The notes beneath the pieces are model-generated. The model was given only the letters and a program-made list of their open reading frames with translations. It was not told where the DNA came from and searched no databases. Of a stretch of 41,901 nt of DNA, positions 35,127 to 35,997 are shown in pieces. The position numbers and the translations under genes were made by a program. Each line of letters begins with the position of its first letter. Positions within the stretch are counted from its first letter, which is position 1. The stretch lies in the IMG/VR virus record IMGVR_UViG_2541047898_000007. One strand, 5' to 3'. This DNA comes from a virus (lineage: Duplodnaviria; Heunggongvirae; Uroviricota; Caudoviricetes).

Positions 35127-35471
35127 GTGAGACATTTACTTTGCACTGTTACCGTGTTCGCGGTGCTTATATCAGCACCCGCTTTTGCGGATCAGCAATG
35201 TGGTGATTTTAAAATCCATTGGGCAGATGATGGCTTAGCCAGAATCAATGGCGCAAAGCCAGAAATGCAAAAAATCACCTTCCTGAAAAACAAAGGCGAT
35301 TATAACAATATCAAGATGGATTGGCGTATGGCTACCGATCAGCCTGGAAGATGGGTTGGTCTTGAGTACATCAATCGAAACGGCAAGATAATTCTCAATG
35401 CCCAGTGGCTGCAAGCCAGCATGAATGCGCCGCGTCAGTATGCAACATACGACTGCCGAAAAGTAAAATAG
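35127..35471 (+). CDS. Secreted small protein with signal peptide, unknown function (moron)
   Basis: 114 aa; N-terminus MRHLLCTVTVFAVLISAPAFA then DQQCGD (predicted signal peptidase I site); second Cys near the C-terminus; AT-rich codon usage unlike flanking baseplate genes. Confidence 0.5.
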   Translation: MRHLLCTVTVFAVLISAPAFADQQCGDFKIHWADDGLARINGAKPEMQKITFLKNKGDYNNIKMDWRMATDQPGRWVGLEYINRNGKIILNAQWLQASMNAPRQYATYDCRKVK

Positions 35472-35492
35472 CCCGCCAGATAGGCGGGCATG
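35472..35492. terminator. Hairpin between convergent moron genes (candidate bidirectional terminator)
   Basis: gcccgccagataggcgggc stem-loop directly after the 35471 stop; T-rich run on the minus strand side. Confidence 0.35.
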
Positions 35493-35494
35493 CG

Positions 35495-35785
35495 TCAAAA
35501 ATATTGAGCTTTAATTATAATAAACACAATAATTACGAACAGGATGTTTCTAATTATTTTTTGCTTATGAGTAAGTTGTTTTTTTTCTGTCGATTTCCCG
35601 GGAGAGTAAAGGTTAGTGGTATGCGACAGCCCCGTGCCGGGAAGGCCATTTGTCATCTTTACGCCTTTTTTCCCGATGTTAATGGTGGAACCTTTACCAC
35701 CAATTGAAGTGCTTACTCCGCTTTTACTAATGTTGATCGCGAGTCCGGGCGCAATCCGGATTCTTTTACGAAATCTAAATCCCAT
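35495..35785 (-). CDS. DUF4236-like protein with C-terminal hydrophobic anchor (moron)
   Basis: 96 aa; MGFRFRKRIRIAPGLAINISKSGVSTSIGGKGSTINIGKKG...PGTGLSHT matches my recollection of the DUF4236 pattern; C-terminal ILFVIIVFIIIKA TM-like; opposite strand to the tail operon. Confidence 0.5.
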   Translation of the reverse strand: MGFRFRKRIRIAPGLAINISKSGVSTSIGGKGSTINIGKKGVKMTNGLPGTGLSHTTNLYSPGKSTEKKQLTHKQKIIRNILFVIIVFIIIKAQYF

Positions 35786-35973
35786 TTGTTACTCCTGTAG
35801 TCAATAATGCGATGGTGCAGGTCCACTCTATGGCGGCTTCATGGCTGAAATTGATTTTCAATGCTTACTTGTTGCAAACATATCCTAATACACCTTGTGA
35901 ATGTGTGCCATTGCAGCGGAAAAGCCTTACTTCACACTGATGTGGCTTAGTTACTAAGAGATAATTGATACCA

Positions 35974-35997
35974 AACCAGCTTCGGCTGGTTTTTTTA
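35974..35997 (+). terminator. Terminator-like hairpin immediately upstream of the baseplate V gene
   Basis: aaccagcttcggctggtt followed by ttttttt, then RBS ggggg and ATG 36008. Confidence 0.4.

Follow-up and report, generated by a model that had tools for sequence, protein, structure and literature searches.

The 41,901-nucleotide stretch of DNA analysed here (the window), IMG/VR virus record IMGVR_UViG_2541047898_000007 of the Caudoviricetes, carries two small genes between two baseplate genes of its tail module, and these genes, along with the slot in which they reside, are considered here. On the left, the slot is bounded by the baseplate hub gene (34050-35114, + strand), whose product matches phrog_196 (baseplate hub) at E 5e-84 and Pfam PF22759 (E217_GP41) at 26 bits, slightly below the cut-off, and on the right by the gpV-like central spike gene (36008-36748, + strand), whose product matches the spike N-terminal domain PF18352 (E 9e-42) and the Apex motif PF18946. 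The first gene of the slot (35127-35471, + strand) encodes an exported protein of 114 amino acids (aa), and the second (35495-35785, - strand) encodes a 96-aa protein with a DUF4236 domain. An initial annotation, made from the sequence alone, had placed both open reading frames (ORFs) between hub and spike, as the ORF list and the sequence confirm, and both are annotated by PGAP in an identical E. coli record. A further ORF of 42 aa (35812-35940, + strand) is probably no gene, as it is missing from diverged cassettes. The comparisons presented below identify the region, with high probability, as a two-tier accessory-gene (moron) slot that belongs to a late operon under Q control and ends in a conserved terminator.

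The main evidence comes from a survey of 92 loci in which the hub and the spike genes could both be located, taken from E. coli genomes, IMG/VR contigs and homologue-encoding contigs, with the presence of slot genes scored by homology-based detection. Hub and spike genes had been expected to adjoin each other in relatives, and this is true of Pam3, in which hub gp19 and spike gp20 are consecutive genes (PMC9942802), but they are adjacent in none of the 92 enterobacterial loci (0/92), whose slot is never empty and spans 401-2467 nucleotides (nt). Of the 92 loci, 87 have a member of the 114-aa family, always on the + strand and first after the hub, at identities of 39-99%, and in five loci a lipoprotein of 241-371 aa takes the first position in its place. 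DUF4236 is present in 30 loci, in each of them second and on the - strand, and at least 15 other cargos are found at the second position. A minimal state is represented by two loci (L094, L095), in which the 114-aa gene alone is followed by a spacer of ~50 nt, the terminator and the spike gene. Breaks in DNA homology between the window and its relatives also fall at three consistent places, 35070-35085, 35456-35470 and 35975-35990. By this distribution and these breaks, the region consists of two adjoining exchangeable units, and not of the single two-gene insertion initially proposed. As the first cassette recombines at a boundary within the hub ORF (35070-35114), the last ~10-15 residues of the hub vary with the downstream allele.

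Morons, in the Juhala/Hendrix definition as summarised in PMC3594210, are recognised as extra DNA between genes that are adjacent in relatives, of deviating base composition, with a promoter and a terminator of its own, and expressed from the repressed prophage. For the slot as a whole, the reference state is the Pam3 gene order, and for the DUF4236 gene it is the minimal loci, in which the 114-aa gene is followed directly by terminator and spike gene. The AT-richness noticed initially holds, with GC contents of 0.392-0.452 (0.452 in the 114-aa gene, 0.392 in the DUF4236 gene and 0.414 between genes) versus 0.54-0.579 in the flanks (0.54 in the hub gene and 0.579 in the spike gene). Terminators are predicted on both strands, at 35973-35997 (+) and 35461-35489 (-), both conserved with compensatory changes. 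Thus, of the moron anatomy suggested by the initial annotation, the accessory nature, the foreign composition, the predicted terminators and the envelope-targeted products stand, whereas the promoter is a candidate only (34984-35012).

The alternative cargos of the second position are diverse. One example is the Phd/YefM-Doc toxin-antitoxin pair of E. coli ECONIH5 (L002:3000-3820). Another is a 193-aa protein followed by a YafO-family toxin in Serratia fonticola (L018:5399-6390). A third is a - strand membrane protein matching Pfam EACC1, a conflict-system component, at E 5e-5, which is at the gathering threshold. This cargo (L003:2960-3310 and L008:1756-2106, - strand in both) is a 116-aa ORF with a transmembrane (TM) segment, and in L003 it overlaps a 53-aa + strand ORF called in RefSeq (3289-3450); the latter call is probably wrong, which would make the EACC1 cargo a second antisense membrane protein of the slot. 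Still other cargos are secreted proteins of 128 aa and 106 aa, Cys-rich proteins of 181 aa and 145 aa, a 185-aa protein with multiple TM segments that precedes one of 70 aa, a weakly HEPN-like protein and antirepressor-like proteins.

The 114-aa gene begins with GTG, 12 nt past the hub stop codon, and is preceded by the Shine-Dalgarno (SD) sequence GAGGTGGGG at 35116-35124. As initially noted, its product starts with a canonical signal peptide of the Sec type (encoded by 35127-35189), with an n-region of charge +1, a 12-residue hydrophobic core and the cleavage motif AFA-D, cut before the D, and two cysteines, Cys25 and Cys110, in the mature protein of 93 aa, a third cysteine (C6) being within the signal peptide. 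Cys25 and Cys110 are invariant among 45 homologues. Residues 2-114 align with positions 2-114 of the 115 in phrog_3443, a family of unknown function, at E 3.1e-45. An AlphaFold2 (AF2) model built on a 45-sequence alignment is an eight-stranded up-and-down beta-barrel, with a predicted local distance difference test score (pLDDT) of ~90 over the mature part, and a periplasmic barrel with a Cys25-Cys110 disulfide is the best explanation of the model and the conserved residues. The family amounts to 79 clusters at 90% identity, with 57 representatives among 1.84 billion proteins, and is limited to prophages of Enterobacterales. In two relatives, P0200 and P0216, the barrel is fused to a lipoprotein N-domain that is homologous (E 4e-9) to the N-terminal part of the 371-aa lipoprotein replacing the barrel in AR_0118, and because of this shared domain the first position is best described as modular, with exported proteins that are either soluble or lipid-anchored. 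In E. coli SY3626 (L006:1972-2259), the first-position gene is annotated as a pseudogene and ~520 extra bases separate the hub from the barrel-coding part; this gene resembles a P0200-type fusion of lipoprotein and barrel that has been disrupted.

The barrel fold might suggest a secreted avidin-like or calycin-like binder of a small ligand such as biotin, a lipid or a cofactor, and a short stretch of the barrel does resemble avidin strands beta7-beta8 (hhalign probability of 49% over 36 columns). There is little chance that this is its nature. The similarity is limited to those ~36 residues, ordinary avidins score an insignificant E of ~1.2, and no Pfam family, Avidin included, matches the barrel at E <= 0.1. 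The mature barrel is of 93 aa versus ~128 aa, the biotin contacts of the N-terminal half are not reliably alignable, and the disulfide topology of avidin differs from that of Cys25-Cys110. Searches of BFVD gave no match to the barrel at E <= 0.001, and the 'STY1065/STY2022 family', after which RefSeq names one homologue, has no hidden Markov model in the NCBIfam copy used and no mention in the literature.

The assignment of the second protein to DUF4236, with a C-terminal hydrophobic anchor, is upheld by the profile searches and by the model. The match to PF14020 has E 1.8e-20 and 73.6 bits (cut-off 27), with residues 3-55 covering positions 1-54 of the 55 in the profile. The AF2 model (pLDDT ~80) comprises a basic six-stranded beta-meander (residues 1-60), a basic linker and a C-terminal helix (residues 73-95), whose hydrophobicity reaches a Kyte-Doolittle maximum of 4.07 over ILFVIIVFIII. 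The N-domain (residues 1-60) has a net charge of +10, and in relatives an SH3 domain is placed after the TM segment, and because of these two features the protein is predicted to be tail-anchored with the N-terminus inside. A fold search with the model returned generic beta-meander matches only (outer-membrane barrels, Rhs shells), and a full-text literature search for DUF4236 returned a single incidental mention, with nothing functional. Neither slot protein could initially be matched to a characterised system, and this remains so: neither matches PADLOC-DB v2 at E <= 1 or any NCBIfam family.

Convergent genes sharing a 23-nt spacer with a hairpin could be thought of as one cognate two-component system, such as a periplasmic sensor or inhibitor with a membrane effector, a toxin with its immunity protein, or a defence/anti-defence pair, and the same convergent layout is found again in Klebsiella phages at just 39% and 52-62% identity. 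This recurrence is, however, to be expected because the first gene is near-universal and DUF4236 is a popular cargo. DUF4236 is missing from 57 of the 87 loci that possess the 114-aa gene, and the window-type 114-aa allele (99% identity) is combined with other cargos in L003 and L011. Conversely, the neighbour of DUF4236 may be a secreted 158-aa protein that is unrelated (hhalign probability of 0.2%), the lipoprotein-barrel fusion (L006, L007) or a diverged barrel (Klebsiella, Hafnia), and outside the lineage DUF4236 occurs without any barrel. Its absence from all five barrel-less loci (0/5) is uninformative, ~1.6 being expected by chance, and not significant. As PADLOC also recognises no such system, a cognate pair is very unlikely, and, judged by the company they keep, the two genes are independent modules, with no evidence of an obligate pair.

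Both hairpins reported in the initial annotation are real and stable (z-scores of -3.9 and -3.05), but the first cannot be regarded as shared. Its stem, GCCCGCC/GGCGGGC (35471-35489, dG -16.7 kcal/mol, z -3.9), is followed by a T-rich tail on the - strand only, which runs into the 3' end of the 114-aa gene, and because of this one-sided T-run it is assigned as the predicted intrinsic terminator of the DUF4236 gene (35461-35489, - strand), not as a symmetrical terminator of both genes. The - strand hairpin is kept in all DUF4236 cassettes, and in a Klebsiella locus (L016) a different stem is followed by a clean T-run. With an SD of its own as well (AGGAG at 35792-35796, in the upstream non-coding region 35786-35972, - strand), the DUF4236 gene is, by its predicted signals, a self-contained antisense unit.

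At the right edge, a predicted intrinsic terminator on the + strand (35973-35997) consists of the hairpin AAACCAGC-TTCG-GCTGGTTT (35973-35992, dG -11.3 kcal/mol, z -3.05) followed by T7, and abuts the spike SD, GGGGG, at 35999-36003. A GC-rich hairpin with a T-run precedes the spike SD in 43 of 43 unique sequences of this edge, with at least five compensated stems (ACCAGC/GCTGGT, ACCCGC/GCGGGT, CCCACC/GGTGGG, AGCCGC/GCGGCT and GGTCGC/GCGGCC), and the + strand intrinsic terminator is thus a conserved feature of the slot. The compensation is clearer in unaligned sequences, as MAFFT/RNAalifold blurs the register at this edge. A search of Rfam over 35913-35998 (+) gave sub-threshold matches only (isrK, 22.5 bits versus 50; Trp_leader, 23 versus 41), most likely driven by the hairpin and the T-run alone. 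As the T-run and the spike start codon are too close together to accommodate a promoter, the spike gene and the baseplate genes downstream need read-through, for which the Q antiterminator (14870-15652, + strand, that of the late operon; Pfam PF03589, Antiterm, E 2.2e-45) would, by analogy with lambda, be the obvious means.

A candidate sigma-70 promoter for the 114-aa gene, TTTATA-17-TATACT (34984-35012, + strand), which could serve this gene in the lysogen, is located inside the 3' end of the hub gene. Among 76 unique hub genes, and leaving the first ten codons aside, synonymous diversity is lowest at 34977-35012 (0.07 versus a median of 0.35), and both hexamers are invariant, which suggests a functional element embedded in the hub 3' end, a promoter being its simplest reading. 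If active, its transcripts, like those driven by Q, would run antisense to DUF4236 as far as the right-edge terminator, and DUF4236 would for that reason be made chiefly while the late operon is not transcribed. A promoter-like TTGAGC-18-AATAAT, a consensus match only, is also present on the + strand within the DUF4236 gene (35504-35533); if active, it would produce an antisense RNA ending at the 35973-35997 terminator.

A location amid baseplate genes raises the question of a part in the virion or in its assembly, as a baseplate accessory or a chaperone, for one or both proteins. Almost every locus of the lineage has the 114-aa gene, which runs in the direction of the operon in close coupling with the hub gene, and DUF4236 is co-oriented inside the tail modules of phages phiCD111 and Pmp3. 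The evidence to the contrary is of several kinds. A cleavable Sec signal would export the barrel from the cytoplasm, where tails are assembled, and unrelated lipoproteins replace the barrel in 5 loci. DUF4236 is antisense to the operon and missing from 62 of 92 loci, and its replacements include Phd/Doc, YafO and the EACC1 membrane protein. The Pam3 baseplate, resolved by cryo-EM, is complete with six proteins and has no extra component of this kind (PMC9942802). Neither slot protein matched a structural family in Pfam or PHROGs. The initial annotation had held that uniform carriage of both genes as structural components would speak against morons; carriage is almost uniform for the barrel gene (87/92), and not for DUF4236 (30/92), and a structural role is highly improbable for either.

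Further indications come from the contexts in which DUF4236 is found. The same hub-spike slot holds it in Klebsiella phages GZ7, RCIP0034, RCIP0098 and Wanchaivirus and in Hafnia prophages, at 52-62% identity (Klebsiella, Hafnia). In the lambda-like siphovirus tail cluster of Pseudomonas syringae B728a, it is located between gpK and gpI/gpJ, in Clostridioides difficile phage phiCD111 between the tail-chaperone gene and that of the tape-measure protein (TMP), in Pasteurella phage Pmp3 near the baseplate hub gene, and in an Acinetobacter phage upstream of a large tail gene. In two Firmicute phages, Faecalibacterium FP_Epona and Roseburia Shimadzu, a DUF4236-TM gene is located between the repressor and the integrase, on the same strand as both. 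Elsewhere, the gene follows the terminase in a Microcystis phage, lies among small early genes in jumbo Brevundimonas phages, neighbours nrdA in ~145-kb virulent phages of Klebsiella, and occupies a non-phage locus of the chromosome in Photobacterium. The recurrence in tail-tip clusters and in lysogeny modules points to a lysogen-expressed, exclusion-like role, by analogy with known exclusion genes. A rather doubtful extension of this idea is that tail-anchored DUF4236 proteins may form a widespread, hitherto unrecognised family of phage-encoded entry blockers whose target, from the cytoplasmic face of the inner membrane, would be the channel that an incoming tail tip or TMP forms, with the barrel as a second, periplasmic layer of self-exclusion. 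Such a function would account for the repeated association of the gene, in unrelated phages, with tail-tip genes (hub-spike, gpK-gpJ, chaperone-TMP) or with the repressor-integrase module.

A small, basic, predicted tail-anchored protein could also be imagined as a membrane-active effector, of the abortive infection or toxin type or one setting the time of lysis, instead of an entry blocker, and the slot does hold toxin-antitoxin modules and the EACC1 conflict-system component in relatives, and other proteins combine DUF4236 with a variety of C-terminal domains. This is improbable considering that the cassette contains no partner sensor or antitoxin and has no PADLOC match, that the lysis genes of the related PEC422 prophage are elsewhere, and that placement between repressor and integrase implies constitutive expression in the lysogen, which would not be tolerated for an uncontrolled toxin.

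Combining the slot architecture with these contexts, we favour, at a probability of roughly 0.6, the reading that the locus is a two-tier moron slot whose products in the window would be envelope proteins protecting the lysogen. The first tier, right after the hub gene, encodes an exported protein, here a predicted periplasmic disulfide-bonded barrel, and in relatives a lipid-anchored barrel or another lipoprotein. The second tier is a site of swappable cargo, here an antisense unit for a DUF4236 protein predicted to be tail-anchored in the inner membrane, its basic beta-meander directed toward the cytoplasm. In the lysogen, the right-edge terminator would halt moron transcripts ahead of the spike gene, and in lytic growth Q-modified RNA polymerase would pass it and run antisense to DUF4236. 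DUF4236 would hinder phage entry at the cytoplasmic face of the inner membrane, in effect like HK97 gp15 or SieA, and the barrel would hinder entry of superinfecting phage in the periplasm, in effect like Glo or Spackle. The anatomy of the slot, its pattern of conservation, the modelled folds and the localisation signals come from the data themselves, whereas transcription of the genes in the lysogen, Q-dependent passage of the terminator and a function in exclusion are what we infer here, and that both proteins act at the envelope and protect the lysogen from superinfection is, by itself, a tentative proposal drawn from analogy.

Several observations weigh against protection of the lysogen by the two proteins. 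The presence of DUF4236 in virulent and jumbo phages and in a non-phage chromosomal region means that a purely lysogeny-linked role is not general. The tail-gene neighbourhood may carry little functional information, as morons gather in late operons anyway. The 114-aa gene, near-universal and co-transcribed with baseplate genes, may have its function in late lytic growth and not in the lysogen. The candidate promoter of that gene matches the consensus at 9 of 12 positions, a kind of match that arises at chance frequency. Finally, DUF4236, being antisense to the operon, must have its own promoter, and neither a consensus scan nor inspection by eye found one on the - strand.

A sub-case of exclusion is that the barrel inhibits a peptidoglycan hydrolase in the periplasm, in the manner of T4 Spackle or PliC/MliC, namely the SLT domain on the TMP of an incoming related phage. 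The phage's own TMP-like protein (755 aa, 30871-33138) has a C-terminal SLT lytic transglycosylase domain, according to the RefSeq name of an identical protein, and since the TMP carries this domain the virion should have a cell-wall-degrading activity there. The predicted periplasmic location, the size of ~93 aa and the predicted disulfide are all compatible with an inhibitor, and the barrel family, like the PliC/MliC family, has both soluble and lipoprotein-anchored versions. No PliC/MliC family signature or profile match was found in the barrel, and this special case is unlikely.

As to the phage itself, its gene content and DNA comparisons show the window to be a lambdoid prophage of E. 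coli with a contractile tail of the Pam3/E217 type. The initial description of the tail module as Mu-like is ruled out by the phage's own Q gene, by its Pam3/E217-type baseplate, and by its relationship to the prophage of E. coli PEC422, in which PGAP lists a contractile-tail module downstream of int, exo/bet/gam, a CI-like repressor, O/P, NinE, RusA, Q, holins, endolysin and Rz1. The baseplate genes are those of the Pam3/E217 'minimal myophage' set (Dit-like protein, Pam3 gp18 plug, E217 gp41-like hub, spike, sheath initiator, J and wedge). By DNA comparison, the late region shares 97-100% identity with that of PEC422. The window corresponds to this prophage only in part, as the early region (1652-16673) is unrelated in DNA, forming a clear mosaic junction with the near-identical late region. 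The PEC422 copy contains IS30 and IS3 insertions, and the window has neither. A close isolated relative is Citrobacter phage Omnitron, at ~91% identity. At the tail-fibre end of PEC422, duplicated and opposed glycine-rich fibre and fibre-assembly genes are found beside a recombinase-family gene, an arrangement resembling an invertible host-range segment, interrupted by IS3 in the PEC422 copy. When window positions 39400-41735 are compared with this end (L013:1-4092), the recombinase end (41269-41735) matches and 39421-41268 differs.

Prophage morons and hotspots are among the main sources of functions in lysogenic conversion, exclusion and defence. The slot described here is a well-delimited, recognisable hotspot (hub, exported protein, cargo, terminator, spike) of many Enterobacterales prophages, and with toxin-antitoxin modules and a conflict component present beside many uncharacterised cargos it could be mined for new envelope-level phage-resistance genes. 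The contexts assembled for DUF4236 also give this widespread domain a concrete, testable hypothesis. If exclusion is not the function, the window would contain an ordinary pair of uncharacterised morons.

Compared to known proteins, the slot barrel has no significant sequence relationship to avidin and calycin barrels or to PliC/MliC, and is shorter. T4 Spackle is a small, Sec-exported, soluble, helical exclusion protein of the periplasm, and Glo of Vibrio phage K139 is likewise a periplasmic exclusion protein (PMC3952083). The 114-aa barrel is like these in size and predicted localisation; it differs in that no sequence or fold match to them was found (Pfam, BFVD, fold search) and in being a beta-barrel where Spackle is helical. 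Ltp of phage TP-J34, the product of a lysogeny-module gene, is an externally exposed lipoprotein that blocks DNA injection via the tape-measure protein (PMC3952083). Ltp and Sie2009 of Tuc2009 are prophage-expressed, envelope-anchored injection blockers of temperate phages with Gram-positive hosts, and the DUF4236-TM genes of FP_Epona and Shimadzu are likewise placed in the lysogeny module. The proteins are unrelated in sequence, DUF4236 has a predicted orientation toward the cytoplasm where Ltp is external, and the gene in the window is in a late operon.

Another comparison is with gp15 of HK97, the moron that Cumby and colleagues reportedly described in 2012 as responsible for superinfection exclusion. 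This protein of the YebO family is located in the inner membrane and blocks genome entry, with specificity determined by the tail region of the incoming phage (PMC3594210). Both are genes for small membrane proteins of deviating base composition in the tail operon of a lambdoid phage, gp15 being autonomously transcribed and expressed from the prophage, and the DUF4236 gene of phiCD111 has the same chaperone-TMP position as gp15, an analogy of position and not homology. The protein in the window, however, matches only DUF4236 in Pfam, and its gene is antisense, at the hub-spike site of a contractile tail.

As to the slot as a whole, hotspots of morons and accessory genes are well known in temperate phages. 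The lom and bor genes of lambda and the hotspots of P2 hold envelope and defence genes at fixed sites among late genes, exchanged between phages and set apart by terminators that Q allows transcription to pass. The present slot differs from these in its hub-spike site, in its two tiers with a near-universal exported first gene, and in its uncharacterised cargo families. What is new is thus the two uncharacterised protein families, a two-tier layout in which an exported first gene is almost obligatory, and the linkage of DUF4236 to both tail-tip and lysogeny modules.

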